NCBI GenBank assembly: GCA_949296965.1
Contig: CASFQL010000018.1
Span: 81,413 to 145,412 of the forward strand
DNA length: 64,000 bases
Reading direction: 5' to 3'
Origin: an uncultured Christensenella sp.
GTDB lineage: Bacteria > Bacillota > Clostridia > Christensenellales > UBA1242
In this document: in pieces, positions 3,420 to 44,471 of the stretch
Layout: each line of letters starts with the position of its first letter
Numbering within the stretch: the first letter of the stretch is position 1
Notes under the pieces: generated by a model
What the model was told of the DNA's origin: nothing
The model's database searches: none
Seen by the model: only the letters and a program-made list of their open reading frames with translations
Position numbers and translations under genes: made by a program

Positions 3420-3724
3420 TCTTTTTATACCTCACAACTAATTATACCAATTTTATAAAATTTTAAAAACAAAATTAACTAGTTTTTACGATTTTTGACA
3501 TATAAAAAATCGGTATTAATAATTTAAAAATTTATAAACTATCAATACCTTTTTCCCTACATATTTTTATTATATAACGCCATAGCAAGAAGGAAAATTT
3601 AATTTTATAATTGTATGGCAGCGACCAATCAAAATTATGTGTCAAAAATGTTAATTTTTGAATTTGAAATTTAACTTGCTTAAATTTTAAAGATTGTGAT
3701 TTTAAAATTACAATAGCACACAAT

Positions 3725-4462
3725 CTACACTAAACCCAAACAATCTGAAACTGTTGTTATTTGTAAATTTTTTGACTTTAATTCTTTAATTATTTTATCT
3801 AAGCAACTAGCGGTTTGACTTGTAGGGTGCATTAAAATTAAATCGCCACCAATAGTGTTTTCTGTTGCTCTTTTAAAAATCAAATTTTGGTCTTTATCTC
3901 TCCAATCAATAGTATCCCTTGACCACATAATTGTCTTATATCCTAAACTTTCAGCAACAGCCAAAGTCTTTTGACTAAAACTGCCAGAAGGTGGAGCAAA
4001 CAAAGTTGTCTTATATGCGCTAATACTTTCTACCAATTTTTGAGTCATAACAATTTCATCTTTATTTTGAGTATTATTTAATTTTGAGTGGTCTTTATGA
4101 AAATAACCGTGATTGCCAATTTCATGGCCAGCATTAACAATTTTTTGCAACATTTCATTATTTTTAGCGACCCAGCACCCACCAACAAAAAAAGTAGTTT
4201 TGACATTATTTTCTTCCAATGTTTTTAACATATCGTCTAAATATTCATCGCCCCAATAAACATTTATCATAAGTGAAACCTTATTTGTATCTCTTGGACC
4301 ATTATAAATAGCAGAATAAGACGAACCCGAAACCTGCATAGCCGCAACAGGAGAAGCAAGCGAAAATACTAAAACACACAAAAAAGTTAAACCCAATATA
4401 ATATTACAAGTTATATGAACAAAATTTCTTTCTTTACTTACAAAAAAACCAAATACTTTCAT
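3725..4462 (-). CDS. polysaccharide deacetylase (NodB domain, YlxY/PdaB-like) with N-terminal membrane anchor
   Basis: 245 aa. N-terminal hydrophobic segment, then NodB-like motifs (FFVGGCW, GHEIGNHGYFH, WSRDTIDW, LILMHP). Confidence 0.85.
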   Translation of the reverse strand: MKVFGFFVSKERNFVHITCNIILGLTFLCVLVFSLASPVAAMQVSGSSYSAIYNGPRDTNKVSLMINVYWGDEYLDDMLKTLEENNVKTTFFVGGCWVAKNNEMLQKIVNAGHEIGNHGYFHKDHSKLNNTQNKDEIVMTQKLVESISAYKTTLFAPPSGSFSQKTLAVAESLGYKTIMWSRDTIDWRDKDQNLIFKRATENTIGGDLILMHPTSQTASCLDKIIKELKSKNLQITTVSDCLGLV

Positions 4463-5708: not shown

Positions 5709-7059
5709 TTTTTACTCCCTCCCTTCTTAAATTATAGAACGACTTTTTAATGCTATTAATATTAACATAAGATAAGCACATACCCCTTAAAGCAACAAAA
5801 AGGACAAAGTAATTTACAAAAAGACCTATCAAAAGACAAATTGCAAAAGACATAACCCCACCAGAAGCCACTATACACAAAATAGCACTAATTATAATTA
5901 AAAATATATATTTTTCCAATATTTTCAAAACATTTTTAGAAAAGCCAGAAGTAACACTATTTGGAATTTTTTTACCGCTAGCATATTCACTTCTAATTTT
6001 TTCAAAAATACTAATCATACCAGAAATGAGAAGCCCGAATGTGAATAAAATGCCAATAAGTCCACTAAAATCTACAAGAACGAATGGAATTGACTGCAAT
6101 AAAAATGCGTAAACCGATATAAAAATTAAGAATGAAACAGTTGCTAATAAACCCAGCATTCTATATCTAACAACAAAGAAAATAATAGTTGCAACAAACA
6201 TTAACAATAGGACAAAAATTAACATTGATTGCAAAGAACCAAAGAAAGAACCTGTCCCTGTATTAAGTCCGCCTGTAACTGTATCATCTAATATTTTATT
6301 TAGATTAATAGGCTTAGCAAGAGCATTAACTTGCAATGCAAGAACTTTTGCACCAAGACTACTTGAAGAATATAAAGTTAATGTTGAAACTGCACTTGAA
6401 ATTTCAAAGCCTGACGAATTGTAGTTATTTCCGTTAATATACAAATAAATATTTTTTGTAGAAGAACTAGAATCGTCAACAAGATTTTGAGTCATTTCTT
6501 TTAATTTCTTTTGACCTTCTTCCGTAAGATTAATTGTAACAGGATAAACATTTTTGCTATCCTGCCCTACAAGAGAACCACCAACTTCACAATTTAAGAA
6601 ATATTCAGTAGTAATACTCCCTTCTGCATCATAATTACTGCTATCAGTGTTGATAGAAAGCCCCTTATCCCCGCCTATTAAATCAAACAAATCATAACTA
6701 CTACCAGTCATAGAAAAAAGATTAAACAAATCAGAATTGTCATAGTTTGAAACTTCAACTCTAATAGTTTCCCCGTGTCTAGTAAAAACAAGCCCTTCAC
6801 TACCAAAGGCGTTATTATATCTTTTAACTGTTTCATCTAATTTACTAACAACTTCATCATAATCTAAATTTGAGTAAGAAGCCTCATAAACCGAAAGCCT
6901 ACCCCCGCCGATATCATACCCAAAGTTAATAGCATTGAAGAAACCTCTAAAAGTGGTGTTTGTAGTAGGAATAACAAAACTTGTAAAAGTAAGCAATAAA
7001 CCAATAACGGTTAGAATAGCCACAATACAAAGTTTAATTTTACTTCTAGTTTTGCTCAT
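5698..7059 (-). CDS. secD: protein translocase subunit SecD
   Basis: Multi-TM SecD-like protein directly upstream of secF. I prefer the ATG at 7059 (GGAG 7 nt upstream) over the track's TTG at 7083. Confidence 0.85.
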   Translation of the reverse strand: MSKTRSKIKLCIVAILTVIGLLLTFTSFVIPTTNTTFRGFFNAINFGYDIGGGRLSVYEASYSNLDYDEVVSKLDETVKRYNNAFGSEGLVFTRHGETIRVEVSNYDNSDLFNLFSMTGSSYDLFDLIGGDKGLSINTDSSNYDAEGSITTEYFLNCEVGGSLVGQDSKNVYPVTINLTEEGQKKLKEMTQNLVDDSSSSTKNIYLYINGNNYNSSGFEISSAVSTLTLYSSSSLGAKVLALQVNALAKPINLNKILDDTVTGGLNTGTGSFFGSLQSMLIFVLLLMFVATIIFFVVRYRMLGLLATVSFLIFISVYAFLLQSIPFVLVDFSGLIGILFTFGLLISGMISIFEKIRSEYASGKKIPNSVTSGFSKNVLKILEKYIFLIIISAILCIVASGGVMSFAICLLIGLFVNYFVLFVALRGMCLSYVNINSIKKSFYNLRREGVKNAK

Positions 7060-15088: not shown

Positions 15089-15435
15089 ATTTTTATCCCC
15101 CATATACAAAGTAATGATATAAAAATTATGCCTATTTTGTCAAATAAATATTAAGTTTAATTGTTATAAAATAATATCTTAGCCCCAAAAATCGTAAAAA
15201 TGTATAAAAAGATTATGAGATAACAAATTACATTGAAAAATTTTTATATGAAAAATTATTAATAATATATTGTAAAATTACTTTATTAAAATTGTTATAC
15301 TAAAAATTAAAATCTATAACAAAAAATTATTAATAATAAATAGTTAATATATTATTAATTATAAATAACTAAATAACTAATAGACTAAACAAATGCAAAA
15401 TAATTAATTAAACAACAAACAAAGAATTAACAAAG

Positions 15436-15480
15436 AAATAATTAATGAATAAATAATTAATGAATAAATAATTAATAAAT
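15436..15480. repeat. 3 x 15-bp AT-only tandem repeat (AAATAATTAATGAAT)
   Basis: AAATAATTAATGAAT at 15436-15450 and 15451-15465; AAATAATTAATAAAT at 15466-15480. Sits inside a 615-bp gene-free spacer. Confidence 0.7.
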
Positions 15481-15610
15481 AATTAGTAAATAAATAAAAA
15501 ATAAATTAGTTAGATAACCAATTAAAATAAATTTTTAATGATAGATAATTAAATAACTAAATAAATAAATTATTAGATAATTAAATGATTAAATAAATGA
15601 TTTAATAATT

Positions 15611-15658
15611 AAATGATAAAATAAATGATAAAGTAAATGATAAAGTAAATGATAAAAT
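15611..15658. repeat. 4 x 12-bp tandem repeat (AAATGATAAARY)
   Basis: AAATGATAAAAT, AAATGATAAAGT, AAATGATAAAGT, AAATGATAAAAT in direct succession. Degenerate copies extend upstream to about 15575. Confidence 0.7.
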
Positions 15659-15724
15659 AAAAAAGGAAGTTTACAACTCGTAAAATTCCTTGTATTTTTT
15701 TATCTAAAAATTAAATAAAAAATA

Positions 15725-18770: not shown

Positions 18771-20903
18771 TTATTCAGCAAAATCGCTAATACAATCATC
18801 AATTTCGTCTTCCTTAATGACGAACTTAGTTCTATTCATATATTCATCATATTTGCTATCATTATAATCTTGGACAGGTCTTAAATAACCTACAACCCTT
18901 GACCAAACTTCTGCTTTTTTGCCACATTCTGGACATTCAAAATGTTCACCTGCTATGTAACCGTGGTCCTCACAAACACTAAATGTTGGAGTAATAGAAA
19001 TATAAGGCATTTTGCTTGTTGAGAAAATTTTTCTAATAAGTTTTTTACAAACTTCTTTATCTTCAATTCTTTCACCAAGATAAAGGTGTAAAACTGTTCC
19101 ACCTGTATAAAGAGATTGCAACTCGTCTTGTAAAGCAACGGTCTTAAAAATATCATCACTAAACTCAACAGGTAATTGAGTTGAATTAGTATAACTAACT
19201 GCATTTTTTCCAGCAGTAATGATATCTGGGAACCTTTTCTTATCAAGTTTAGCAAGTCTAGCGCTAACGCCTTCTGCTGGAGTTGCCTCCAAGTTATATT
19301 GATTACCTGTTTCTTCTTGGTATTCAACCATTTTTTGTCTTAGATAATTCATAACTTTTAAGGCGAATTCTTGTCCTTCCTTTGTAGTAAGGTCGGTATT
19401 TTTGAAATTCTTTAAACTTTCATTCATACCAACAATTCCAATAGTGTTAAAGTGATTTGACCAATATCCACCTGTCCTCTTTTTGACATCTCTTAAATAG
19501 AATTTACAATAAGGATACAAACCTCTATCTGTTTGACTTTCTACTATTTTTCTCTTAATTTCAAGTGAATTTTTTGCGATATCAGCATACTTTGAAAGCA
19601 TTGAAAAATATTCACTTTCGTTTTGAGCAAGATATCCAATACGAGGCAAGTTGATAGTTACAACACCTATTGAACCTGTAAGAGGGTTTGAACCAAATAA
19701 TCCGCCACCTCTTTTCCTAAGTTGAGAAACATCAAGTCTAAGCCTACAACACATTGAAACCGCATCTTCTGGGGAAAGGTCGGAATTAACATAGTTAGCA
19801 AAATATGGAATACCATATTTGCAAGTAATATCCATAATTGAATTAATGACATCACTATCCCAATCTAAATCTTTTGTAACATTGATAGTTGGAATTGGGA
19901 AAGTAAATACTCTGCCCTGTGAGTCGCCTTCTAGCATAACTTCACAAAAAGCCTTATTAATGATATCCATTTCTTTTTGATATTCACCATATGTAGTATT
20001 TTGTGGTTGACCGCCAATAATTACAGGCTGATCTCTTAAAGTTTTTGGGCATTTAATATCAAGTGTAATGTTTGAAAAAGGACATTGAAAGCCGACTCTT
20101 GTAGGAACATTCATATTAAAGACAAATTCTTGTATTGCCTGTTTAACTTGGCTATAACTTAAATTATCAACTCTAACAAAAGGAGCACAATATGTATCAA
20201 AACTACTCCAAGCCTGAGCCCCTGCCGTTTCTCCCTGTGTAGTAAAAGTAGCATTAACGACTTGTCCTAAGAAAGACCTCAAATGTTTTGGAGGTTTTGA
20301 AGACATTTTTCTAGGAACACCAGTAAATCCATCAGTTAAAATTTGCCTTAAATCCCAACCAACGCAGTATGCACCAAAGAAACCAAGGTCGTGCAAGTGA
20401 ATTGCTCCACTTTCATGGGCTTCTTTTACTTCTGTTGGATAAACTTCATTTAGCCAATAGTTCTTAGTAAAATTTTCTCTAACATAGTTATTTAAGCCAG
20501 CAACACTATGTTGCATATTTGCGTTTTCTTTTACAGCCCAGTCAGCACTGTCAAGGTATTTAGTAAACAGATCAATAGTAGCCCCTGTGAGAGCATTTAA
20601 TTCCCTAGCAGATGACCTTTTTTCTCTATATAAGATATAAGCCTTTGCAACTCTTGCGTGTCTATTTTCAATCAAAACTTTTTCAACTGTATCTTGGATT
20701 TCTTCAACAGTTGGAATTTTGTCTCCGTTCTTTGTCTCAACAATCTTTTCTACTTGCCCTGCTAAGTTTTCAGCAAGTTCTCTATCGTGCCCATCGCAAG
20801 CAAGTGCTGCCTTATAAATAGCATTTGCTATCTTATTCCTATCATAGTCTTCTATTAAGCCATCTCTCTTTCTAACTTGTTTAATCATTTTTTTTGTAAA
20901 CAC
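18771..20903 (-). CDS. nrdD: anaerobic ribonucleoside-triphosphate reductase
   Basis: About 705-710 aa. N-terminal ATP-cone (VRKRDGLIEDYDRNKI), C-terminal zinc ribbon CPECGK and glycyl-radical motif RVVGYLRP. The start is either GTG at 20903 or ATG at 20888. Confidence 0.95.
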   Translation of the reverse strand: MFTKKMIKQVRKRDGLIEDYDRNKIANAIYKAALACDGHDRELAENLAGQVEKIVETKNGDKIPTVEEIQDTVEKVLIENRHARVAKAYILYREKRSSARELNALTGATIDLFTKYLDSADWAVKENANMQHSVAGLNNYVRENFTKNYWLNEVYPTEVKEAHESGAIHLHDLGFFGAYCVGWDLRQILTDGFTGVPRKMSSKPPKHLRSFLGQVVNATFTTQGETAGAQAWSSFDTYCAPFVRVDNLSYSQVKQAIQEFVFNMNVPTRVGFQCPFSNITLDIKCPKTLRDQPVIIGGQPQNTTYGEYQKEMDIINKAFCEVMLEGDSQGRVFTFPIPTINVTKDLDWDSDVINSIMDITCKYGIPYFANYVNSDLSPEDAVSMCCRLRLDVSQLRKRGGGLFGSNPLTGSIGVVTINLPRIGYLAQNESEYFSMLSKYADIAKNSLEIKRKIVESQTDRGLYPYCKFYLRDVKKRTGGYWSNHFNTIGIVGMNESLKNFKNTDLTTKEGQEFALKVMNYLRQKMVEYQEETGNQYNLEATPAEGVSARLAKLDKKRFPDIITAGKNAVSYTNSTQLPVEFSDDIFKTVALQDELQSLYTGGTVLHLYLGERIEDKEVCKKLIRKIFSTSKMPYISITPTFSVCEDHGYIAGEHFECPECGKKAEVWSRVVGYLRPVQDYNDSKYDEYMNRTKFVIKEDEIDDCISDFAE

Positions 20904-20927
20904 TCCTTTGTTAATATGTATGCCACA

Positions 20928-20986
20928 ACTTTACCACTCACTACATATTGTGTCAACAAAAAAACAAAAAATACTATATATTGTGG
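20928..20986 (-). promoter_or_regulatory. nrdDG promoter with two NrdR boxes
   Basis: Minus strand: TTGACA (20956-20951), 17 nt, TAAAGT (20933-20928). Two near-palindromic 16-mers fit the NrdR-box consensus acaCwAtATaTwGtgt: TCACTACATATTGTGT (20938-20953, overlapping the -35/spacer) and ATACTATATATTGTGG (20971-20986). Their starts are 33 bp apart. Confidence 0.65.
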
Positions 20987-21189
20987 TCGCTTTTGTTTAG
21001 GTTGCACAAAAAAAGAATTTGTAACACTTGCACAAATATAAAAAAAGTGTTAAAAATCACTTGATTTTTTAGTTTTCTTTAACAAATTTTGCAATTTTTT
21101 AAAAACCTTTATAATAAAGAGAAAGAGAATTTTTAGTTGTAAAAATATAATTTTTTTATTGCCAAATTTTACCAAAAAACAAGATAAAT

Positions 21190-21217
21190 TTGACAATAGT
21201 ATAGTTTCTGATATAAT
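21190..21217 (+). promoter_or_regulatory. near-consensus sigma-A type promoter facing tRNA-Leu
   Basis: TTGACA (21190-21195), 16 nt, TATAAT (21212-21217) on the plus strand, about 170 nt upstream of the tRNA. There is no other plus-strand gene between them. Confidence 0.5.
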
Positions 21218-21320
21218 AAAAATATAAAAGTAAAAAATATTTTTTAAAAAATTTTTTTTTAAAAACATTTTTATATTTACTTTATATATTCCATATTTAA
21301 TTATATTTTTTCATATATAA

Positions 21321-21396
21321 ATATGTTTTATATTTAGATATATGTTTTATATGTAAATATATTTTATATGTGAATATATCTTTTATATGTAGATAT
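21321..21396 (+). repeat. four tandem ~18-bp repeats (ATATATGTTTTATATGTAR) running into the 5' end of tRNA-Leu
   Basis: Units at about 21321-37, 21338-56, 21357-73 and 21374-92. The last unit ends ...TATATGTAG and supplies the first bases of the tRNA acceptor stem (GTAGATA starts at 21389). Confidence 0.6.
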
Positions 21397-21475
21397 GGTG
21401 GAATGGTAGACACACTAGATTCAGAGTCTAGCGAGTTTTAAACTCATGCAGGTTCAACTCCTGTTATCTACACCA
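21389..21475 (+). tRNA. tRNA-Leu (anticodon CAG), class II with long variable arm, CCA encoded
   Basis: Acceptor stem GTAGATA/TATCTAC. D arm GTGGAATGGTAGACAC. Anticodon stem CTAGA/TCTAG with loop TTCAGAG. Variable arm GAGTTT..AAACTC. T arm GCAGGTTCAACTCCTGT. Ends ACCA. 87 nt. Confidence 0.9.
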
Positions 21476-21527
21476 AAATTATATTTATTATAAAATTAAA
21501 AAGACTGTCTATTAATAACTATATAAT

Positions 21528-21629
21528 AAATTATGTGCTGTTGTAATTTTGTAAAAACAAAATAACAACTATTAGAATTTAACTTAGTTAAATTTTAATT
21601 CAAAAATTAACATTTTTGGCACAAAATTT
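21528..21629 (-). repeat. four-way-junction intergenic element, copy E1
   Basis: P1 AAATTATGTGC (21528-38) / GCACAAAATTT (21619-29), with one A-A mismatch. It encloses three hairpins: GTTGTAATTTTGT-aaaa-ACAAAATAACAAC, ATTAGAATTTAAC-tta-GTTAAATTTTAAT and CAAAAAT-taac-ATTTTTG. Strand is assigned by the conserved TGTGC|CAAAA junction. Confidence 0.75.
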
Positions 21630-21694
21630 GAATTTGTCGTCGTTAAGTAAAAATAAAAATAAATTTTCTCTTTTACCTTAACTTCCTAGAATAT

Positions 21695-21796
21695 AAATTA
21701 TGTGCTGTTGTAATTTTGTAAAAACAAAATAACAATTATTAAAATTTAACTTAGTTAAATTTTAATTCAAAAATTAACATTTTTGGCACAAAATTT
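21695..21796 (-). repeat. four-way-junction intergenic element, copy E2
   Basis: Second copy, 167 bp downstream of E1. The 117-bp blocks 21526-21642 and 21693-21809 differ at 2 positions. Confidence 0.75.
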
Positions 21797-21930
21797 GAAT
21801 TTGTCGTCGCCATACAAGAATAAAATTAAACTTTTTTTCTTGCTATGGCTTCCTAAAATATAAAAAAAGGAAAATACTAAAAATAACCCATAAGGTTAAA
21901 AAGAGTAATTCCTTTTTTTATGATTGCTTA

Positions 21931-23103
21931 TTAATCTTTTTTCTTATCTTTTTCTTTTTTATATTGTTTATATAAGATAGCACCTCTAAGGACTAAAAGA
22001 ACACAAGTAATAATAAAGCCATAATAAAAATATTCATAATAATCAATTACGGGACTATTTACATAATATTGAGAAATTTCCCCATCTTTGGAAGTTAAAA
22101 CAATGTTTCCCAAATCTTTTGTCATCATAATTTGACAACCTGTTTCTTCCAATCTATCAAGTGCCTCTTGTGTTGGGTGTCCGTAATCATTTACTGCACC
22201 AACACTAATGACTGCTATTTCAGGTTTTACAGCATCTAAAAATTCAGCACTTGTTGATGTTTTACTGCCATGATGACCAACTTTTAAAACATTACAATCA
22301 AAAATTAATTTTCGAACTTCTTTTGGATATGCTTGCAAAAATGTTTCTTCATCTTCAATTCCAGCATCTCCAACAAACAGGTATTTCATATTTTGAATAT
22401 TAACCATCATTATTGGAGAGTATGAGTTCCAATCGCTAGAACCTAAATTTTCTTCAAGTGGTGTATAGAAATTAACTTCATAAGCATATTCTTCGTTAAC
22501 AATTTTATCTCCCTTTAAGGAATAATTCATTTCAATTAAGCAATCTTCGTTATATATTGCTTCCATTGTTTGACGCCAAATTTTTGTGTCCTTTACAACA
22601 AAATCTTGCGTCATCAAATTGTTTTCTTCTTCATATGTAGAATAAACACAAGGAATATAAACATTTAAAACATCATAATTTTCAAAAATATCAGGTGCAT
22701 TTCCAATGTGATCGCTATCTGTATGAGTTAAAACAAGGTAATCAATAGTAGTAATATTTAGATTGTCAATGTAATTTATAAGAGTTGAGGCAATTTCATC
22801 ATCATTTTCACCCGTGTCAATAAGCATAACTTTATCATCTGGGAACTCAATTAATGCACTATCTCCCTGCCCAACATCAATAAAATGAACAGCATAATCT
22901 CCCGTAATAGAAGTATCAAATCTATATCCCTTCTCATTAAGCGGATTATCAGTGTTCTTTACAACTATAAAACCTACTAAGAAAAACACCCAAACACAAC
23001 AAATTATGACAAAGTTTTTTAATTTATTCTTTTTACTCATTTTGTTATATTTTTTTGTATCACTAGCAACATATTTAATCCAATCAGTTTTCTTTTTACT
23101 CAT
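21931..23103 (-). CDS. membrane-anchored MBL-fold metallo-hydrolase (ComEC/Rec2 C-terminal lactamase-type domain)
   Basis: 390 aa. N- and C-terminal TM segments. HFIDVGQGDSALI, LVLTHTDSDHIGN, VGHHGSKTSTS and NDYGHP motifs. Confidence 0.8.
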   Translation of the reverse strand: MSKKKTDWIKYVASDTKKYNKMSKKNKLKNFVIICCVWVFFLVGFIVVKNTDNPLNEKGYRFDTSITGDYAVHFIDVGQGDSALIEFPDDKVMLIDTGENDDEIASTLINYIDNLNITTIDYLVLTHTDSDHIGNAPDIFENYDVLNVYIPCVYSTYEEENNLMTQDFVVKDTKIWRQTMEAIYNEDCLIEMNYSLKGDKIVNEEYAYEVNFYTPLEENLGSSDWNSYSPIMMVNIQNMKYLFVGDAGIEDEETFLQAYPKEVRKLIFDCNVLKVGHHGSKTSTSAEFLDAVKPEIAVISVGAVNDYGHPTQEALDRLEETGCQIMMTKDLGNIVLTSKDGEISQYYVNSPVIDYYEYFYYGFIITCVLLVLRGAILYKQYKKEKDKKKD

Positions 23104-24226: not shown

Positions 24227-24347
24227 AACTTACTTTCTCCCATAAATTATAGTTCAAAATCTGCTTTATGGTTAACGACTTCTTCTACCTTATACCAATA
24301 ATCTAAAAAAATTAATTTTGTCTACTACAATTAAATTACTATAATAC

Positions 24348-24439
24348 GGACTTTGTGCCAAAAGTGAAACTTTTGTGTGAAATTTTACTAAAATTTCACA
24401 GTAAAAATTTTATTCTAAAATTTTTACCGCACAAAGTCC
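24348..24439 (+). repeat. four-way-junction intergenic element, copy A
   Basis: P1 GGACTTTGTGC (24348-58) / GCACAAAGTCC (24429-39). P2 CAAAAGT-gaa-ACTTTTG (24359-75). P3 TGTGAAATTTT-act-AAAATTTCACA (24376-24400). P4 GTAAAAATTTT-attct-AAAATTTTTAC (24401-27). Only one unpaired junction nucleotide (C24428). Confidence 0.8.
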
Positions 24440-24497
24440 CTTTCTCCCTGCCAACAAATCATCAACCCATAAACCTAATTAAATTATATAACACAAT

Positions 24498-28586: not shown

Positions 28587-28741
28587 TTAAAACTCCTAAA
28601 TATTTTTTCTTGCGGATAAAATTAAATAAAAAATTAATAAAATACCAATATATATAACTTACTGTAATAATTGAACATTAATGATTAAAATTTATAATAT
28701 CTATGCAATTATTTGTAGTAAGAAAACTATAATGTCTATTT

Positions 28742-28834
28742 GGGACTTTGTGTCAAAAGTTTCACTTTTGAGTGAAATTTTTAATAAAATTTCACAGTAA
28801 AAATTTTTTCAAAATTTTTACTAAACAAAGTCCC
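28742..28834 (+). repeat. four-way-junction intergenic element, copy B
   Basis: P1 GGGACTTTGT (28742-51) / ACAAAGTCCC (28825-34). P2 CAAAAGT-ttc-ACTTTTG. P3 GTGAAATTTT-taat-AAAATTTCAC. P4 GTAAAAATTTT-ttc-AAAATTTTTAC. Confidence 0.8.
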
Positions 28835-31511: not shown

Positions 31512-31866
31512 TGGTGGAGGTGACGAGAATTGAACTCGTGTCCAAAACGGTAAAAATAAATCTTTCTCCCATAGACAGTTAATTTAAAAATTTAGTTTTT
31601 TAATCTTAAATTAACAAAAAATTAAAAAACGAGTTTGTTTTATAAAATTGCCCTCCAAACATTTGGCAAAGTTTTCTTGCAAAACTGACGCCTAGAAGTT
31701 AGGTGCAAGAAGCCCAAAATCTAAACGGCTAAACTAAGCAGCAACTGCTAATCTAGCATTATTATTGTTTTCTGCATTTAAGCATTTTCCCGTTTTTAAT
31801 GTAGGCAGGAACTACACTATGGCTTAACTTATCCTTCAACCGCCCTGTCGAAACCTTTACACCCCC
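31512..31866 (-). ncRNA. ssrA: tmRNA (SsrA)
   Basis: 5' GGGGGTGTAAAGGTTTCGACAGGG. 3' GGACACGAGTTCAATTCTCGTCACCTCCACCA (tRNA-Ala-like T arm plus ACCA). Tag reading frame GCA GAA AAC AAT AAT AAT GCT AGA TTA GCA GTT GCT GCT TAG (31775-31734) gives AENNNNARLAVAA. Lies directly downstream of smpB. Confidence 0.9.
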
Positions 31867-32297
31867 GCAAGCCTTGATTGTTCTCTTTTAATATCTCTTT
31901 CCTTAATGTCTTCTTTTTTATTGTAGTTTTTCTTCCCTCTGCATATAGCAATTTCAAGTTTAAGTAAATCGCCTTTAAAATATGCTTTAATTGGAATAAT
32001 TGTTAACCCTTTTTGTTCAACCTTTTGTTTTATTTTTAATATTTCGTTTTTATTTAAAAGCAATGTTCTATCTCTATCTGCCTTTAAAGAAAACCCATTC
32101 ATATTTTGATAAGGTTTAACAAAACAATTTTTTAAGGTTACCTTATTCCCAGAAACTAAGATAAAAGCCTCATTTAAAGTCATACCGTTTTGCCTTATTG
32201 ACTTTATTTCAGCCCCTGACAAAACAATTCCTGCCTCAAATGTTTCTAAAATAAAATAATTAAAATTAGCAAATTTATTTGTAGCAACGACTTTCAC
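31857..32297 (-). CDS. smpB: SsrA-binding protein SmpB
   Basis: 146 aa. NKFANFNYFILETFEAGIVLSGAEIKSIR, typical SmpB. The last 10 nt overlap the tmRNA 5' end. Confidence 0.95.
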   Translation of the reverse strand: MKVVATNKFANFNYFILETFEAGIVLSGAEIKSIRQNGMTLNEAFILVSGNKVTLKNCFVKPYQNMNGFSLKADRDRTLLLNKNEILKIKQKVEQKGLTIIPIKAYFKGDLLKLEIAICRGKKNYNKKEDIKERDIKREQSRLAGV

Positions 32298-32391
32298 TTA
32301 TTTTCTCCTATAACATTATATCATATACTCCAATAATTGCAAATAGTTAATTTTGACAAAATTTATTTAAAAACGCAAAATTATATAATAC

Positions 32392-32505
32392 GGAACTTTG
32401 TGCAGTAAAAATTTTATTAATTTAAATTTAATAAAATTTTTACCACGCGATTTTAAATTCCATTTAAAACCGCGTCCAAAAGTTTAACTTTTGGCACAAA
32501 GTTCC
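32392..32505 (-). repeat. four-way-junction intergenic element, copy C (inverted relative to A/B/D)
   Basis: P1 GGAACTTTGTGC (32392-403) / GCACAAAGTTCC (32494-505). Hairpins on the plus strand: a 16-bp GTAAAAATTTTATTAA... stem (32405-43); ACGCGATTTTAAAT-tcc-ATTTAAAACCGCGT (32445-75, one A/C mismatch that becomes G-U on the minus strand); CAAAAGT-tta-ACTTTTG (32477-93). Confidence 0.8.
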
Positions 32506-32587
32506 TTTTTTTTACTAACTCAAATTTTACAACTACAAAATAATTTTAATACCTACAACTATTTTTATTTTTTAATAGGTAACTAAA

Positions 32588-34708
32588 CTATTTTCTTCCC
32601 TTTGATTTAACCTTTCTAACTACTTCAAAATTAAGTTTTCTCTCTTTTTTATCACAATCTACAAGCAAGACTTCAACCTTTTCCCCAATTTTATAAAAAT
32701 TATTATGAGAAACCAAACTTAAACTTTCTTCATCAAAGTTATAGAAATCATCAGTCAAACTAGCAACACTAACTTGTCCTTCACAAGTGTTGTCAAGTTC
32801 CACATAAAATCCACGAGCATTGACACCACTAATGATACCTATAAATTTATTACCAATAAACTGCTCCATATACTCACACTTTTTGTAATCAGTAATTGCT
32901 CTTTCAACATCTTCTGCTAGTTTTTCTTGTATACTAGATTTTTGACTAGACTTAACAACAAACTCGCTTAAATTTTGAGAATTTAGATAAGAAGAATTAT
33001 TTTTTAAATATTCTTTAATAATTCTATGAATTGTTAAATCTGGGTATCTTCTAATAGGCGAAGTAAAATGACAATAATATTTTAGAGCCATACCAAAATG
33101 TCCCAAGCATTTTTCAAAATATTTTGCTTTTTTTAAACTTCTTAACATAACCATATTAACAACACTTTCAATATCTTTACCTTTAATAGAATTTAAAATT
33201 TGTTGTAAATCTTTTGGCTCAACATCTTTACTTTTCAAATCAAAACTAATTCCAAGAGTGTTTATAAAATTATAAAAAGACTTCATTTTATCCATATCAG
33301 GCTTTTCGTGGACACGATAAACAAAAGGAATTCCTTTTTCATCGAAGGTCTTAGCAACAACTTCATTAGCCATAACCATAAAAGTTTCTATAATTTTTGT
33401 AGATTTTGTTGCAACTCTTTTCTCAACAGAAATAGGCATATTATTGTCGTCTACAATAACAACTCCTTCTGGTAAATCGAAATCTAATGCTCCATAACTT
33501 TCTCTTCTTTTGTTTAAAATGAGAGAAAGTTCATACATATCAAGCAGAACATCTTTGATTTCTTTTAATCTTTCACAAGTCTTTAAATCCCCATTAATCA
33601 AATCTAAAACTTCATCATAATTAAGTCTATATTTTGACCTAATAACACTTTCAAAAATTTGGCTATCTAAAATGTCCCCATCTTTACTAATTTTGATTTC
33701 AACAGAAAGAGCAAGTCTATCAACATTTGGGTTAAGAGAACAAATACCATTTGAAAGTTGTTTTGGTAACATAGGAATAACTTGATTAAGAAAATAAATA
33801 CTCGTCCCCCTATTAAATGCTTCCTCATCAAGTGGACTATTTACTTTAACATACTCGCCAACATCTGCAATATGAACACCAAGCAAAAAGGAGCCGTCAC
33901 TTAATTTTTCAAGGCTAACGGCATCGTCCAAATCTTTTGCATCTTTACCATCAATGGTAAAAAGCATTTGACTAGTTAAATCTCGCCTATTTTTAAATTC
34001 ATTTTTATTAATTTCTTGTTTTATAGAATTTGCACAACGCAAAACTTCATCACTAAAAACATCTCTAACCTTATTAAGTCTTAAAAGCCACTTAATATCG
34101 TTACCTTTTTTAGAAAGCGGACCAATAACTTCAACAACTCTGCCTATTGCATTGCCAGATTTATAACTTATGATATCAACTACTACTTTATCGTTATCAA
34201 CAGCCCCCAAATCTTCCCCAGCAGGAATTCTAATTTCCAAATTTTTCTTATCTAGTAAAACATAACCATAATCTTTTATTTTTCTATAAGTTCCAACAAG
34301 TCCATCATTTTCCCTTGATAAAATCTTTAAAATCTTACCTTCTCTTTTTTTGCCCGCATATCCACCACTTATAATTTTTACAAGAACAATATCCCCATCA
34401 AAAGCCCCTTGTAAGTTCTTCTTTGAAACATAAATATCTCCATTAGAATTTAAAACAAACCCAAAATTATTTGAGTTAATACTTAGTTTACCCTTTTCAA
34501 AGCCAAGAAAAGAAATTGTAGCGAACTTATTTTTGCTATATTCATAAATCTCGCCATCATTTACAAGTTCTTTTAACTCATCAAAAACTTTACTAGTATC
34601 TTCCCTTAAATTTGTTGCAACAATATTAGCAAGTTTACTAAGTCCCTTGTGATTAAATCTTTTTTCATTTAATAGATTTAAAATTTTTTCTTTTAAAACT
34701 GTATTCAT
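32588..34708 (-). CDS. rnr: ribonuclease R
   Basis: 706 aa. RNB domain motifs (DGKDAKDLDDAV, HFGMALKYYCHFTSPIRRYPD) and a C-terminal S1 domain. Confidence 0.95.
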   Translation of the reverse strand: MNTVLKEKILNLLNEKRFNHKGLSKLANIVATNLREDTSKVFDELKELVNDGEIYEYSKNKFATISFLGFEKGKLSINSNNFGFVLNSNGDIYVSKKNLQGAFDGDIVLVKIISGGYAGKKREGKILKILSRENDGLVGTYRKIKDYGYVLLDKKNLEIRIPAGEDLGAVDNDKVVVDIISYKSGNAIGRVVEVIGPLSKKGNDIKWLLRLNKVRDVFSDEVLRCANSIKQEINKNEFKNRRDLTSQMLFTIDGKDAKDLDDAVSLEKLSDGSFLLGVHIADVGEYVKVNSPLDEEAFNRGTSIYFLNQVIPMLPKQLSNGICSLNPNVDRLALSVEIKISKDGDILDSQIFESVIRSKYRLNYDEVLDLINGDLKTCERLKEIKDVLLDMYELSLILNKRRESYGALDFDLPEGVVIVDDNNMPISVEKRVATKSTKIIETFMVMANEVVAKTFDEKGIPFVYRVHEKPDMDKMKSFYNFINTLGISFDLKSKDVEPKDLQQILNSIKGKDIESVVNMVMLRSLKKAKYFEKCLGHFGMALKYYCHFTSPIRRYPDLTIHRIIKEYLKNNSSYLNSQNLSEFVVKSSQKSSIQEKLAEDVERAITDYKKCEYMEQFIGNKFIGIISGVNARGFYVELDNTCEGQVSVASLTDDFYNFDEESLSLVSHNNFYKIGEKVEVLLVDCDKKERKLNFEVVRKVKSKGRK

Positions 34709-39426: not shown

Positions 39427-39798
39427 AATCAACCTCTTAATCTTTTTATAAGAATATTTTAGCAATTTACACAATTTTTGTATATAAAAATTAACTACTT
39501 TTTTAAAATTTTTAAAAAAACAATTAATTTGCATTTATTTGTAGAAACAATAATTATTATGTTATAGAAAATAATTTCTTGTAAAATTATTAACTAAAAA
39601 AATGCAAGAATTTAGTCAAAAAAAATTGAAAAATAAAGATATTCATATGCACATATAAGCATAAAATTTTTCTAAAATTTTTAGCACTCATAAGATATGA
39701 TTTTTTTTAAAAAAATCAATATGAATTATTTGCAATTTTTTTTGTAATATAAGTTTTTATTGCTACAATAAAATAAAAACAAATATATGTAAAAAGAC

Positions 39799-39890
39799 AA
39801 ATTATGTGCCAAAAGTTTTACTTTTGTATGAAGTTTTGTTATTCAAAACTTCATTGTAAAAATTTGAAAAATTTTTACAGCACATAATTT
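39799..39890 (+). repeat. four-way-junction intergenic element, copy D
   Basis: P1 AAATTATGTGC (39799-809) / GCACATAATTT (39880-90), perfect. P2 CAAAAGT-ttt-ACTTTTG (39810-26). P3 ATGAAGTTTTG-ttatt-CAAAACTTCAT (39828-54). P4 GTAAAAATTT-gaa-AAATTTTTAC (39856-78). Confidence 0.8.
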
Positions 39891-40104
39891 TTTCTTAATT
39901 ATATTTTAACAATTAATAAGCACTTTTATTCACTATATTAATTATAAAAAAATACCTAAGTGTGTTTTATTATATTAAGGTATAAACTACAAAATTCTAC
40001 ATTTTTTTTAAAACTTAAAATCAAAATATCTTTACTTTTTACTAGTAATATAATTTTTTATTAAGCCTTTTTAAAAGAATTTTTAAAAAATATCAAGTAG
40101 AGTA

Positions 40105-40189
40105 TTTTTACTCTCATAGAAAAGACTTTTAACACTAACCATTTCAGTGTAAGTAAGTCCAGCATTAGAATTAGCACAAAGTATTATAA
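40105..40189 (-). pseudogene. relic of a dus paralog (codons ~28-56 only)
   Basis: About 85 bp aligning without gaps to 41641-41725 of the intact dus gene at roughly 85% identity. It translates to LCANSNAGLTYTEMVSVKSLFYESKN against Dus LCAYFKAGLTYTEMVSVKGLFYKSKK. Stops close the frame on both sides. Confidence 0.65.
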
Positions 40190-40384
40190 CTTAACTAAAT
40201 AATTTATAAAAAAATACTATTTATAAAAAATTATAAGTATAAAGAATAATAATTTTTAACAATAATACAAAAAGAACTTTTTCTTTTTTTAAAGTTTAAT
40301 TTATTTCTCTAATTAAATTAAAGATACCTTAACTTTTTTTATTATTTTATTTATATAATTCACATAATAAAGTCATTTAATATT

Positions 40385-40813
40385 TTAAAGGCTTGAAATA
40401 AAAATTATTTTATTTTTAAATTTTCTCTTTGTATATACCAAATCACTAAACAACTCAAAATTATCTAGGCAAATAAATAAATCTGTTTTCCTTACATTAA
40501 AATTACTTTTATTAGAATAGGCATCAAAATAAAATAAAATGCAAATTTTCTTTTCATTTATATTAAATTCGGCTGTTTTTTTAGAAAAACTCTCTCCAAA
40601 AATAGAAATAATCTTGCCATTATAAATTAACACAGCATTCAACTGCCTTCTATAAAAATTACTGTTATAGAAAGTTAAAATTACATACTTATCCTTAAAC
40701 TTTTTACACTCCTCTAAATTTTTATAATATGCTTTTGACAAAAAAAGCGGAGTATCTTTATTAAAAGGAATTAGTGCAAGATTTTTATCAACCAACCAAA
40801 TTAAATTTTTCAT
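40385..40813 (-). CDS. hypothetical protein (orphan ORF between dus and the dus relic)
   Basis: 142-aa ORF with no Shine-Dalgarno upstream of the ATG. No family recognised; only a vague C-N hydrolase-like pattern. May not be expressed. Confidence 0.35.
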   Translation of the reverse strand: MKNLIWLVDKNLALIPFNKDTPLFLSKAYYKNLEECKKFKDKYVILTFYNSNFYRRQLNAVLIYNGKIISIFGESFSKKTAEFNINEKKICILFYFDAYSNKSNFNVRKTDLFICLDNFELFSDLVYTKRKFKNKIIFISSL

Positions 40814-40883
40814 CTAAAACATAATATGCACTAGGCAAGTATTTGTTAAATAAAGTAATTTGTCAGTTGATGAAATTTAATTT

Positions 40884-41798
40884 TTAAAACAAAGCATCTT
40901 CAATTTCTTTTAATGTTGAAGCAAACGCAATCTTTTTTCTTTTTTCAACTGCATTAGGGGCTTTACCAACATATCCAAAAGCGTGTCGTTTAAAGGTTTT
41001 TACTATATAATCTTCATCAAAATATTTTTTTAAAATTTCCAAATGTTTTTTAGCGATGTCTTTTTTAGTAAGGGAAATATTAACTTTCTGCAAAGTCGAA
41101 AAAATTTCAGGGTTACCAATGCTACCTCTACCTATCATAACGCCATCACACCCACTTTTTAGCATATGCTCATATGAACATATATCTACTATATTTCCAT
41201 TAGCAATTACAGGAATATTAACGCTATCCTTGACTTTTTGTATATCAGAAATATCAATTTCCCCACTATACCCTTGCTCCTTAGTTCTTGGGTGAACAGT
41301 AATAGCACTAGCCCCCGCACTTTCACACATTTTGGCAAATTCAACTAACACATCATCATCTTTATTAAAGCCTTTTCTAAACTTAACTGTAATTGGTTTT
41401 GTTGTTGATTTAACGCAAGTTGAAATAATTTTTCTAGCAAGTTCAATATCTTTTAAAAGAGCACTTCCGTCATTATTTTTTACAATTTTTGGAGCAGGAC
41501 AACCCATGTTTATATCAATTATATCAAACTTATCTAATATTCCACTTTTTAAAACACTTTCAAAAATTTCTGGCTCATGCCCAAATAATTGAACAGCACA
41601 AGGGCTTTCCCCTTCAAAAGTTTGAAGTAATTGTAAAGTTTTTTTACTCTTATAAAAAAGGCCTTTAACACTAACCATTTCAGTATAAGTAAGACCAGCC
41701 TTAAAATAAGCACAAAGTTCTCTAAATGCAACATCAGTAACCCCAGCAAGTGGAGCCAAAAAAATATTATTTTTTGTTTCAATATTTTTTATTTTCAT
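40884..41798 (-). CDS. dus: tRNA-dihydrouridine synthase (DusB-like)
   Basis: 304 aa. LAPLAGVTDVAFR, DINMGCPAPKIV and HPRTKEQGYSG motifs. Confidence 0.9.
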   Translation of the reverse strand: MKIKNIETKNNIFLAPLAGVTDVAFRELCAYFKAGLTYTEMVSVKGLFYKSKKTLQLLQTFEGESPCAVQLFGHEPEIFESVLKSGILDKFDIIDINMGCPAPKIVKNNDGSALLKDIELARKIISTCVKSTTKPITVKFRKGFNKDDDVLVEFAKMCESAGASAITVHPRTKEQGYSGEIDISDIQKVKDSVNIPVIANGNIVDICSYEHMLKSGCDGVMIGRGSIGNPEIFSTLQKVNISLTKKDIAKKHLEILKKYFDEDYIVKTFKRHAFGYVGKAPNAVEKRKKIAFASTLKEIEDALF

Positions 41799-42024
41799 AT
41801 GAGCATTTTACCATTTGTGTAAGTTAAATACAATTATTTTTTTTACCTTTTACTCTAATTTATTGAAAACAATACTATTAAAGAATTATCTATCTATAAT
41901 AAAAAATATAATTTTCACTTTTAAAAAACTACAAATATTTTTACACAATAAGTTTAAGATAAAACTTTTTTATCTAGTTAAAGAGTTATAGGAAATTAGT
42001 TTAAATTAAAAAATCATAAACATA

Positions 42025-43611
42025 TCAGTTTAAGGTTACTGAATTTTTTCTATTAAAAAGTTCGAATGCTTCTTGTTTAGTAAATATTTTAAATACGAAA
42101 ATACCTATAACATATAATAAAATACTAATTCCAAAGGAAATCAAAACACTCGCCATAAAAGACATAAAAATGTTAAGAGTTTTGTAAGTTAAAAAGTTAA
42201 TTAAGCAAATAAACATTGCAAGTATTAATGGTAAAACGAAACCTTTTTTAAATGAAGAACTGAAATTAAGTTGTTTTTTAAGATAAATTAAATTTATAAA
42301 TGCAGAGATAAAATAACAAACTGAATTTGATATAATTGCCCCTATAATATTAATGTAAGGATTATTGATAAGAATAACTTCAATGATAACTTTAAAAATC
42401 AAACTAATTGACAAACTAATAACGGGAATATACATTCTATCTAGGGCTTGAAGAAGTGAAGTTGTGACTTGAAGTAGTGTCAAATAAAAAATATTCATAC
42501 TTGAAATCATAAGAAGCGAGCAGGCTAAATTAAATTCATAAAGACTTTCAAATGCCCCCGAATAGAAAACTCTAAGAATAATAGGAGAAAAGATAGAAAA
42601 AATAAAAACACTTGGCAGAGTGATTAAAATAACGAGTTTAAATGTTAATTGGACTTTAACTTGAATACTTTTGTAGTCTAACATAGATAGAAAATAAGAA
42701 ATATATGGTATAACCGCCATACAAATAGAAAGAGCAAGTGTAGTAGGGAGCGAAATAAGAGTTGAAATAATACCCGAACTAATACCTAAAAGTCCCGTTG
42801 CAAAAAAACTTTCAAAGCCCATATATTTAAGTAAATTAATAATTAGGAAACTATCTATGACAAGTAATAAAGGAAGAATAGTAGAACTTATTGAAAAAGG
42901 AATTGTCAATTTATAAATTTGGCTAATTAGTTGTTTTTTTGAAAAATTTATTTGAGTTTTTTCAAAGAATTTTTTATTTTTCTTTTTATATATAAGAAAA
43001 TAAATAATAAAACAAACACAAGTTATTATTTCGGCAACTAATATCCCTAAAAAAGCCCCAAAAGTGCCATAAACTGTGCCAATTTTACTTAAAATCGTTG
43101 CAAAAGTAAAACCAAGTGATAACTTAAAAAGTTGTTCTACTATTTGTGTTATACTTGAAGGTATCATATTTTTCAAGCCTTGAAAGAACCCTTTTAGCAC
43201 ACTATTAATACCCACAAAAACAATAGCAGGCGAAATAACTAAATAACAAATATACGCACTTGGATACCCTTGCAAACTAGCAATTATTTTTGAAAAAGCA
43301 CCCAATACTACACAAATAATTACACTAATAAAAATTTGTAATAATAGAGAATAAGTTAGAGTTTTATATGCTAAAAAATTATTTTTATTTGCCACATAAC
43401 TAGAAACTTTTTTTGACACAGCAAGAGTAAACCCAGAAGAAACAAAGGCAAGGAAAAATGTATATAGAGGAAAAACGATATAATAAATTCCCATTCCTTG
43501 CGTTCCAAGAACATTAGCAAGCGGTATTTTATAAATAGCACCTAAAATCTTACATATAATTGCACTTAGACTTAGAATTAATGTTCCAAATAAAAATGAC
43601 TGTTTTTTCAT
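42025..43611 (-). CDS. MOP-superfamily polysaccharide/lipid II flippase (SpoVB/YabM-like)
   Basis: 528 aa with about 14 TM helices. Directly downstream of spoVT, as yabM is in Bacillus. Confidence 0.8.
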   Translation of the reverse strand: MKKQSFLFGTLILSLSAIICKILGAIYKIPLANVLGTQGMGIYYIVFPLYTFFLAFVSSGFTLAVSKKVSSYVANKNNFLAYKTLTYSLLLQIFISVIICVVLGAFSKIIASLQGYPSAYICYLVISPAIVFVGINSVLKGFFQGLKNMIPSSITQIVEQLFKLSLGFTFATILSKIGTVYGTFGAFLGILVAEIITCVCFIIYFLIYKKKNKKFFEKTQINFSKKQLISQIYKLTIPFSISSTILPLLLVIDSFLIINLLKYMGFESFFATGLLGISSGIISTLISLPTTLALSICMAVIPYISYFLSMLDYKSIQVKVQLTFKLVILITLPSVFIFSIFSPIILRVFYSGAFESLYEFNLACSLLMISSMNIFYLTLLQVTTSLLQALDRMYIPVISLSISLIFKVIIEVILINNPYINIIGAIISNSVCYFISAFINLIYLKKQLNFSSSFKKGFVLPLILAMFICLINFLTYKTLNIFMSFMASVLISFGISILLYVIGIFVFKIFTKQEAFELFNRKNSVTLN

Positions 43612-43613
43612 AA

Positions 43614-44117
43614 CTAAAACCTAAGCAAACTACTCAAAAAATCACATAACAATTTCATAGAAGAAAGTGGACATTCATCAAGTTTATCATTTGCAAGAAG
43701 AATTAAAAATCCACAATCAAAACCTTCACTTTTTATTTTAAAAATATAAGAATACAAATAAGTATCATCTTGATTTTCAATAATTTTCTTTTCAGTAAAG
43801 TAAACATCTTCCCTACTTTTTATATTGATAAGTTTGTCTATGTAATCTTTTTTACTAACGCCTTTACAAAGAATAACTTTCTCATCATCACACATTAAAC
43901 AAGGCAAATTATAATTTTGATAGATAATATCTAAGAAACTTTCTGCAAAACTTGAAATATTATTTAACTCTGAGAACTTTTTTAATGTAATCTCTCCACT
44001 ATCATTTATAAAAATTTCAATAGAACTGCCAGTTTTAATGTTCAAAACTCTACGCATCTCTTTTGGTATAACCACCCTACCTAATTCGTCAACTTTTCTA
44101 ACCATTCCGCAACTCAT
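43614..44117 (-). CDS. spoVT: AbrB-family transcriptional regulator SpoVT-like
   Basis: 167 aa. N-terminal SpoVT/AbrB swapped-hairpin domain VRKVDELGRVVIPKEMRRVLNIKTGSSIEIF plus a C-terminal GAF-like half. Confidence 0.8.
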   Translation of the reverse strand: MSCGMVRKVDELGRVVIPKEMRRVLNIKTGSSIEIFINDSGEITLKKFSELNNISSFAESFLDIIYQNYNLPCLMCDDEKVILCKGVSKKDYIDKLINIKSREDVYFTEKKIIENQDDTYLYSYIFKIKSEGFDCGFLILLANDKLDECPLSSMKLLCDFLSSLLRF

Positions 44118-44443
44118 ATTTATCTCCTTAAAATAATTGTATGATAAATATAGTTTAAGTAAAAGTTAAAAAGTTAAACATAAAATTTTAAATATTTTTA
44201 ACAATTAAACATTTTAAACTTTTCATAAAGAAACATAAAAAAATAAAAGTATGATTAAATTTAATTAATCTAAACTCTAAAATAAAACTAAAAAGATGTA
44301 TTGTCAAAAAAAATAAAACTCATTGTAAATTAAAAATATTTGTTTAAAAACTTTTTATTTTTCACTATAAATCTGATCTAATATTTATACTTTTTAAACT
44401 TTCAATTTTTATTAAATAACTGAAAATATTTTTTAATTTTCAC

Positions 44444-44471
44444 AAAAAAGAGTTAGTATAAAACTAACTCT
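44444..44471 (-). terminator. intrinsic terminator overlapping the stop of the 251-aa gene
   Basis: Minus strand: AGAGTTAGT-tttat-ACTAACTCT followed by TTTTT. The TAG stop (44470-72) is inside the 5' arm. Confidence 0.6.

Follow-up and report, generated by a model that had tools for sequence, protein, structure and literature searches.

The 64,000-nt stretch of DNA analysed here (the window) carries two tandem 167-bp units immediately downstream of a tRNA-Leu gene. In our view it is somewhat better than an even bet (probability of roughly 0.55) that these units are adjacent copies of an undescribed small interspersed repeat of the REP/BOX/MITE kind in an uncultured gut-type Clostridia genome, and not a device specific to this locus. 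The core of the repeat is a module of 90–115 nt that can form a perfect four-way junction on either strand. Approximately 11 copies, all of them intergenic, were found in an ∼82-kb read of scaffold_36 (ENA assembly ERZ16268208), which comprises the window and 18 kb outside it; this corresponds to ∼1 copy per 8 kb. We regard the repeat as probably mobile.

Two tandem units downstream of tRNA-Leu

The genes in the window, among them nrdD, degV and floA, fit an A+T-rich anaerobic Firmicute (29% G+C), and their closest homologues come from Clostridia MAGs. On the plus strand, a consensus sigma-70-type promoter (TTGACA-16-TATAAT, 21190–21217; 12/12 match, with TG before the −10 element) is located upstream of tRNA-Leu (anticodon CAG, 21389–21475). 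The leader of this tRNA contains about six tandem 19-bp units (21283–21396) that are not homologous to the 167-bp units, and this 19-bp expansion is absent from the relative L039. The 167-bp units follow head-to-tail, starting ∼50 nt 3′ of tRNA-Leu. TRF reported a period of 167 bp with 1.9 copies (21526–21835), and a repeat search gave 87% identity over the whole unit (21519–21685 versus 21686–21852), in agreement with an earlier note on this DNA that had described two tandem 167-bp units at this position. The promoter and the absence of a terminator before the units, both also reported there, were confirmed: a consensus scan of 20900–22000 returned zero terminator-like sites, and thus none between tRNA-Leu and the units. 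Because no terminator was found in between, it is possible that the units are co-transcribed with tRNA-Leu.

Both units are built in the same way, with all parts on the plus strand. In unit 1, the MFE fold of 21527–21631 is a four-way-junction module in which P1 (UAAAUUAUGUGC/GCACAAAAUUUG) surrounds the hairpins P2, P3 and P4. It is followed by the linker GAATTTGTCGTCG (21630–21642), a 39-nt hairpin that we call allele A (21643–21681; 5 bp, a bulged C, 5–6 bp and an AU-rich loop) and the tail CTTCCTAGAATATAAATTA (21682–21700), whose final TATAAATT doubles as the beginning of unit 2. Unit 2 repeats this order with a junction module that is again the MFE fold (21694–21798), the linker GAATTTGTCGTCG (21797–21809), a 39-nt hairpin of a second type, allele B, with the bulged C as in allele A (21810–21848), and the tail CTTCCTAAAATATAAA (21849–21864), with which the array ends. 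In each unit, P1 closes P2, P3 and P4 with 0–1 unpaired junction residues, and the single-stranded linker and the variable hairpin come next. A terminator-like hairpin (21866–21922) adjoins the array, and the next gene, encoding an MBL-fold hydrolase (21931–23103, minus strand), is convergent.

The 117-bp blocks at 21526–21642 and 21693–21809, which share the linker and for which the coordinates in the earlier note were exact, differ at just two positions (21569, C/T; 21575, G/A). These differences replace G-C by G-U and G-U by A-U, and pairing is kept on the plus strand only. A 25-nt core of the block had three matches in the window versus zero expected, and folding with RNAfold, as the note had proposed, revealed strong structure in both units (z = −5.0 for unit 1 and −7.2 for unit 2); taken together, these values exclude chance as an explanation for the units. 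The tandem junction itself (hairpin A, tail, unit 2, hairpin B) was seen in three independent assemblies (L001, L002 and L003), which rules out an assembly artefact. Of the six contigs covering the tRNA-Leu locus, four break in or near the repeat, so that the unit number could be under-called and higher in some strains. A repeat that occurs about once per 8 kb must affect assembly, as these breaks illustrate, and probably affects transcript ends too.

A dispersed family with a shared fold

The four short elements in the window were first located with a P4/P1 sequence search. RNAalifold on a plain MAFFT alignment of all eight copies failed to recover P3 and P4, as that alignment placed the two subtypes out of register, and the covariance model (R1) was consequently built from the short type alone, using six copies (the four window elements plus two of another genome), and run unfiltered. 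R1 detected exactly seven sense-strand copies in the window, including both units (38 bits, E = 8e-7 for unit 1; 32 bits, E = 2e-5 for unit 2) and a module at 3630–3727, as well as four further copies, one of them decayed, in the flanking 18 kb of the same scaffold. The module at 3630–3727 is part of a third full-length copy on the minus strand (3560–3727; R1 29 bits), complete with linker, allele-B hairpin (3580–3618) and tail, which begins on the stop codon of a polysaccharide deacetylase gene. The remaining four are short-type copies. Three of them are on the minus strand, at 24346–24440 (junction module only; 92.9 bits), 28741–28834 (86.2 bits) and 39797–39891 (92 bits; with a P1 resembling that of the full-length type, then a T-run), and one is on the plus strand at 32392–32506 (79.7 bits), antisense between rnr and smpB and followed by T8. 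The search for further occurrences of the unit sequence, also suggested in the earlier note, thus yielded one more full-length copy and four shorter elements. The picture of a local, tRNA-linked device did not hold up, as the scaffold of the units belongs to a dispersed family with members elsewhere in the window, on the rest of the scaffold and in two other MAGs.

The family comes in two forms. The full-length form consists of the module, a 12-nt linker, the 39-nt bulged hairpin and a tail that ends in TATAAATT and thereby recapitulates the 8 nt with which the unit opens. The short form lacks linker, hairpin and tail and consists of the junction module only. Short elements have the same P1-P2-P3-P4 architecture as the units, with stem sequences that are partly different, and the 39-nt hairpin is only ever attached to the full-length junction type. 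P1 is formed by the two ends of the module, which at the DNA level constitute an 11–13-bp terminal inverted repeat (..TTTGTGC/GCACAAA..) in every intact copy.

For all 14 intact copies, the MFE structure was a three-branch (four-way) junction with helices of 10–13, 8–16, 8–13 and 5–8 bp; one further, decayed copy does not fold into a four-way junction. Across the six short-type copies, 96.3% of the cells were paired, with both partners replaced in 15 pairs and a single partner replaced in none. None of 500 shuffles reached this level, and slid controls paired 35–54%. There was no conserved unpaired nucleotide, since loops and junction residues all vary among the 14 intact copies. The MFEs of the sense and antisense strands were equal, and the ∼440 pairs included 8 G-U versus 3 A·C, counts that are too small to assign a strand. 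Equal MFEs together with so few G-U and A·C pairs fit a palindromic element at the DNA level. A search of the whole window against Rfam 15 at gathering thresholds returned tRNA and tmRNA only, with no family for the repeat, and a permissive search of 21380–21920, 24300–24490 and 32350–32550 gave nothing but sub-threshold generic hairpins.

The two 39-nt hairpins had been described as completely different in sequence, yet alike in shape. The hairpin arms and the closing CTTCCTARAATAT are indeed found at the positions claimed, and the shape is kept while the stem sequence is replaced. The sequences, however, are not completely different: both hairpins align without gaps and are identical at 23 of 39 positions, mostly in the loop and upper stem. 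In an alignment of five hairpin sequences, alleles A and B differed on both sides in 6 of 11 stem pairs and on one side only in none, the bulged C fell in one column in all five, and 94.5% of the cells were paired. Allele A also occurs in the MAG ‘Clostridia bacterium BRZ_E bin128’ (bin128; loci L024 and L032), and allele B recurs in the window in the copy on the minus strand described above. Given this gapless homology and the recurrence of each type elsewhere, hairpins A and B, by their sequences, are two old alleles of one homologous module and not unrelated look-alikes, which replaces the idea of a ‘swapped’ hairpin. The argument that simple duplication and drift would not produce such a pair still stands, as a 98%-identical scaffold is found beside so altered a hairpin.

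Dispersal, proposed mobility and alternative readings

In the nearest relative (GCA_949290565.1; MBL-fold protein 72% identical), no unit was present at the tRNA-Leu(CAG) locus and no copy upstream of patatin; the flanks are not identical to those of the window. Short-type copies are present elsewhere in that genome (L012 and L015). The comparison of this locus between related genomes, which the earlier note had recommended, showed hairpins A and B in other strains and tRNA-Leu without units in the nearest relative. In bin128, two full-length copies with unrelated flanks match each other at 100% identity across the 176 bp that TATAAATT delimits at either end. The surroundings of one of these copies are syntenic with 40873–45225 of the window, a segment in which the window has no copy. 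Together with the empty tRNA-Leu and patatin sites, the bin128 copies document insertion polymorphism among related genomes. Identity of the unit between bin128 and the window is 89%, compared with 64–73% for neighbouring housekeeping DNA.

R1 detected no copies in 50 kb of equally A+T-rich DNA of relatives, and more distant relatives (51% identity) had none in 23 kb. A scan of GTDB returned 31 loci, which were mostly chance matches; only L012, L015, L024 and L032 were real. Scans of JGI metagenomes with the linker pattern and of IMG/VR with the P4-P1 pattern each gave a single match, attributable to chance, and blastn in distant mode with both units found no match in plasmid and phage collections. 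Literature searches returned no published four-way-junction or four-stem-junction repeat family.

The density of the copies, their patchiness, the identical copies in unrelated flanks, the decayed copy, the inverted repeats of P1 and the lack of strand asymmetry all point to a DNA-level element. We propose that the family spreads, or once spread, through the genome as non-autonomous DNA and that selection may act on a folded single strand, as in REPINs, bcr1 and BOX elements. At the tRNA-Leu locus, a first copy would have inserted ∼50 nt 3′ of the tRNA gene in this lineage only. A second copy with the other old hairpin allele could then have joined it, by insertion into or recombination at its TATAAATT end, so that the two share one TATAAATT. 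Gene conversion between the neighbouring junction modules would subsequently have removed their differences, and the conversion tract would have stopped at the hairpin because the stem arms are too different to pair. Strain L003 is informative in this respect. Its unit 2 differs from unit 1 at 5 of 73 comparable nt, whereas the window strain shows 0 differences there. Among the differences in L003, P4 is altered on both sides, from A-U to G-C, which is the state found in bin128 and in the short type. As L003 keeps a diverged unit 2 scaffold, the near-identical scaffolds of the window strain seem best explained by gene conversion between adjacent copies. The locus would then be a clean small case of concerted evolution, in which conversion homogenises the homologous part and halts at a compensated stem. 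Any effect at the RNA level, such as a structured 3′ extension of tRNA-Leu, a stabiliser or a terminator-like block, would be a by-product or a secondary use.

Some observations count against this proposal. No transposase or recombinase was present among the called genes over the ∼82-kb scaffold, and inspection of the flanks revealed no target-site duplication at short-type copies. In the full-length type, the direct repeat of 8 bp at the two ends does not vary between unrelated sites and so may belong to the element and not be a target duplication. The compensated stems of the internal hairpin P3 argue for selection on a folded strand, for which a purely parasitic MITE of the DDE type would have no use. 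Furthermore, −10-like hexamers before P1 and T-runs fit small RNA genes equally well, and the two differences between units 1 and 2 keep their pairing on the plus strand alone.

The best-surviving alternative, unlikely though still worth serious attention, is that the junction modules form a multigene family encoding small structured RNAs, each transcribed on its own with a −10 box just before P1, and some with P1 and a U-run as terminator; these RNAs might act in trans or bind a protein. On this view, the full-length form would represent an extended isoform, and the tandem would be two genes in a row, transcribed from the tRNA-Leu promoter or from the −10-like box found in each tail. In line with this, a −10-like hexamer was found 0–8 nt upstream of P1 in 9 of 14 copies versus 25% in the intergenic background (p ∼0.002, for copies that are not fully independent), although such hexamers are common in spacers with 79% A+T. 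T-runs directly follow P1 at 32507, 39796 and L049 20789, and the copy at 32392–32506 has TATAAT upstream and T8 downstream even though it is antisense to rnr and smpB. The strong covariation in junction and hairpin, a conservation between genomes that exceeds that of housekeeping DNA, and differences between units 1 and 2 that are G-U-compatible on the plus strand would also be expected of RNA genes. However, the lack of any conserved unpaired nucleotide would be unusual for a functional RNA, and neither the G-U and A·C counts (8 versus 3) nor the equal MFEs indicate a strand asymmetry. The high copy density, the patchy occurrence among close relatives with an empty tRNA-Leu site in the nearest one, the existence of a decayed copy and the absence of an Rfam match speak against small RNA genes as well. 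A DNA repeat and an RNA role are nevertheless compatible; bcr1 and BOX, for instance, are both dispersed and transcribed. We rank the interspersed repeat first and small RNA genes second without treating them as exclusive.

It seems improbable that the elements are cis-acting RNA structures which the host, with a genome poor in canonical terminators, maintains in order to protect 3′ ends or to mark processing points between genes and downstream of tRNA-Leu. At 8 of 10 loci the element is co-oriented with the flanking genes or tRNA, but this is not significant (one-sided p ∼0.05) and is confounded by nearly all genes being on one strand; two copies are antisense. The copy at 3727 that starts on the stop codon of the upstream gene, the L049 copy (20693–20788) that lies between convergent genes with a T-run, and the region of 20900–22000 with no consensus terminator would all suit such a role, and REP, BOX and ERIC have effects of this kind (PMC3049150). 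Yet orthologous junctions in relatives lack the element, which is thus not required there, and two stacked copies after a tRNA, next to the terminator-like hairpin at 21866–21922, have no obvious purpose.

A bolder idea, to which we give little credence, is that the junction modules are abundant unrecognised small structured RNAs or single-stranded DNA substrates, whose fast-changing but always paired stems (outer P1, P3 and the bulged 3′ hairpin) may be specificity determinants for a dedicated lineage-specific protein. If this were true, the family would be a shape- and sequence-addressed system and not junk repeats, with the tRNA-Leu array as a two-allele expression site. Very improbable is the idea of the earlier note in its literal form, in which an unchanging scaffold would present interchangeable hairpins whose sequence is purposely varied at this locus to provide specificity or to act as a guide. 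The scaffolds, identical at 115 of 117 positions beside a stem with six swapped pairs, are compatible with it, and the invariant bulged C suggests recognition by a protein. However, the five sequences available, which come from three genomes and three strains, contain only two alleles, both of which stay constant from locus to locus and from genome to genome, and other strains carry the same A and B hairpins at the same locus. In addition, a self-paired stem is no guide unless it is opened, no associated enzyme gene lies nearby, and the polymorphism of L003 shows that it is the scaffold that changes at this locus and not the hairpin. Finally, a duplicated attachment site left by an integrative element targeting the 3′ end of tRNA-Leu, as a direct repeat immediately 3′ of a tRNA gene might suggest, is scarcely credible, with no tRNA sequence in the units and nothing integrated between them, and is refuted by the copies at loci without a tRNA (3560–3727, L024 and L032).

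Several other identities were rejected. For an integron attC site, the GTTAAGT (5′) and ACTTAAC (3′) of allele A are the reverse of the R″(RYYYAAC)…R′(GTTRRRY) arrangement, allele B has neither, and there is no integrase nearby. A ToxI-like array of a type III toxin–antitoxin system does not match the next gene, which encodes the MBL-fold hydrolase and is convergent on the minus strand, and a tandem riboswitch or cis-regulatory leader is contradicted by the absence of conserved unpaired positions and of a downstream gene on the plus strand. Hairpins A and B are not intrinsic terminators: they are followed by CUUCCUA, and a T-run after P1 is seen only in three short-type copies elsewhere. A sigma-54 promoter in TTGGCACAAAATTTGA was dismissed because its −12 element is not conserved in other copies, and a small ORF in the unit (MCCCNFVKTK, from ATGTGCTGTTG...) because it is absent from the short-type copies. 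An IS3-family element of the relative L039 was considered as the parent IS, but its ends share only CCAAAAGT, 8 nt, with P4.

Comparison with known interspersed repeats

With REP sequences and REPINs, which RAYT transposases (IS200/IS605-like, Y1) mobilise, the family shares short, abundant, extragenic palindromic units, a folded single strand with compensatory changes, tandem arrays and the lack of a classical target duplication. REPINs, too, change in a compensatory manner, form tandem arrays and insert beside copies that are already there (PMC3116915). The differences lie in the fold, a 90–115-nt four-way junction here as opposed to the simple or doublet hairpin of REP, in the A+T-rich composition compared with the G+C-rich REP, and in the Clostridia host. 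We also found no RAYT/Y1 transposase domain among the called genes of the ∼82-kb scaffold and of 8–12-kb pieces of relatives. The bcr1 element of the Bacillus cereus group, which is transcribed and keeps its structure via compensatory changes (PMC3184786), is likewise an interspersed repeat of a Firmicute, ∼155 bp long, with a cruciform-like compensated structure and a distribution that is not conserved between relatives. However, every bcr1 site has 5-bp direct repeats on either side of the element, whereas there are none at the short type and a constant 8-bp repeat at the full-length type, and the fold differs.

BOX elements are modular (PMC3049150), and the pneumococcal BOX (boxA-boxB(n)-boxC), RUP and SPRITE repeats resemble the present family as modular composites of Firmicutes with optional modules and much predicted structure that are often located 3′ of genes. 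Effects on co-transcribed genes would be expected by analogy with BOX (PMC3049150). Nevertheless, no sequence relation to BOX and no Rfam or BLAST match was found, and the family is set apart by its closed four-way junction and by an optional bulged hairpin with two compensated alleles. MITEs of the DDE type are similar in being <200 bp long and in having terminal inverted repeats (here P1), many copies, variable presence and decayed members. In contrast to such MITEs, the short type has no target-site duplication, and the full-length type has the same TATAAATT ends irrespective of the site. Among the called genes of the ∼82-kb scaffold we found no parent IS with matching (GGGACTTTGTGC-type) ends, and the internal hairpins covary, which neutral decay of a MITE does not predict.

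Strong covariation makes the family either a false-positive trap or a real candidate for pipelines that search for structured RNAs. A dedicated enzyme for the junction or the bulged hairpin, should there be one, would constitute a new mobilisation system. Weighing these comparisons, we consider that the family behaves like REP/REPIN, bcr1 and BOX, yet cannot be filed under any of them by its fold, its composition and its optional module. With its closed four-way junction and optional bulged hairpin, it would be a structurally unusual addition to the small interspersed repeats of bacteria, in an uncultured, very A+T-rich lineage of Clostridia for which no such repeat had been described before.

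Sequences flanking and ending the tRNA-Leu array

Upstream of the tRNA-Leu(CAG) gene, about six tandem 19-bp units resembling TATATATTTTATATGTAA (window 21283-21396) fill the span from the consensus promoter to the tRNA, and each unit repeats approximately the first 8 nt of tRNA-Leu (GTAGATAT). The leader sequence is single-copy at the corresponding locus of the nearest relative (GCA_949290565.1), and the 19-bp expansion is therefore specific to the window lineage. Within the array, the tails of both units start with CTTCCTA (window 21682-21688 and 21849-21855), as do the full-length tails at L024 and L032, two loci of the MAG Clostridia bacterium BRZ_E bin128. This heptamer, the complement of the Shine–Dalgarno-like UAGGAAG, is kept in three of four distinct full-length copies, with CGTTATA in its place in the copy at 3560-3727. 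On the 3′ side, between the array and a convergent MBL-fold gene, A7GGAA and TTCCT7 enclose an inner AACCC-ATAA-GGTT hairpin (window 21866-21922). This inverted repeat looks like a bidirectional terminator, and it was not called as a terminator by the consensus scan.

Family copies and spacer sequences in the window

One family copy (window 32392-32506, plus strand) lies antisense inside the 290-nt spacer between rnr (32588-34708, minus strand) and smpB (31857-32297, minus strand), a short distance upstream of the gene for tmRNA (31512-31866, minus strand; tag AENNNNARLAVAA). It has a TATAAT 2 bases upstream and eight T residues immediately 3′ of its closing stem, P1. Another copy (39797-39891) sits between dus and pgk, in a 1.4-kb interval where no genes were called (39535-40883). 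The same interval holds a 93-nt partial duplicate of dus, apparently a gene fragment, that is 85% identical to its counterpart (40097-40189 versus 41633-41725). Elsewhere, the intergenic spacer at 15316-15670 is taken up by a long low-complexity array composed only of A and T, with periods of the ATAA/AATAAATAAATAATT type.

Copies outside the window and an IS3-family element

On the window's own scaffold, in a piece just outside the window (L050), the S10 ribosomal protein operon is preceded by two oppositely oriented copies: one at 5760-5847 (minus strand) and a decayed one at 6082-6172 (plus strand; MFE −12 kcal/mol), whose junction is lost. At L024 of bin128 (3974-4150), a plus-strand ORF reads into the tail of a family element on the opposite strand, and the element appears to supply the ORF's final codons and stop codon; insertion thus seems to have reshaped the 3′ end of a gene. 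In GCA_949290565.1 (L039 140-1470), an IS3-family element with HTH_21/rve ORFs and inverted ends of ∼30 bp (containing CCCCAAAAGTT) lies upstream of patatin, at the place occupied in the window genome by the family copy 24346-24440. The sequence that this IS3-family element has in common with the P4 hairpin of the repeat family amounts to only 8 nt (CCAAAAGT).
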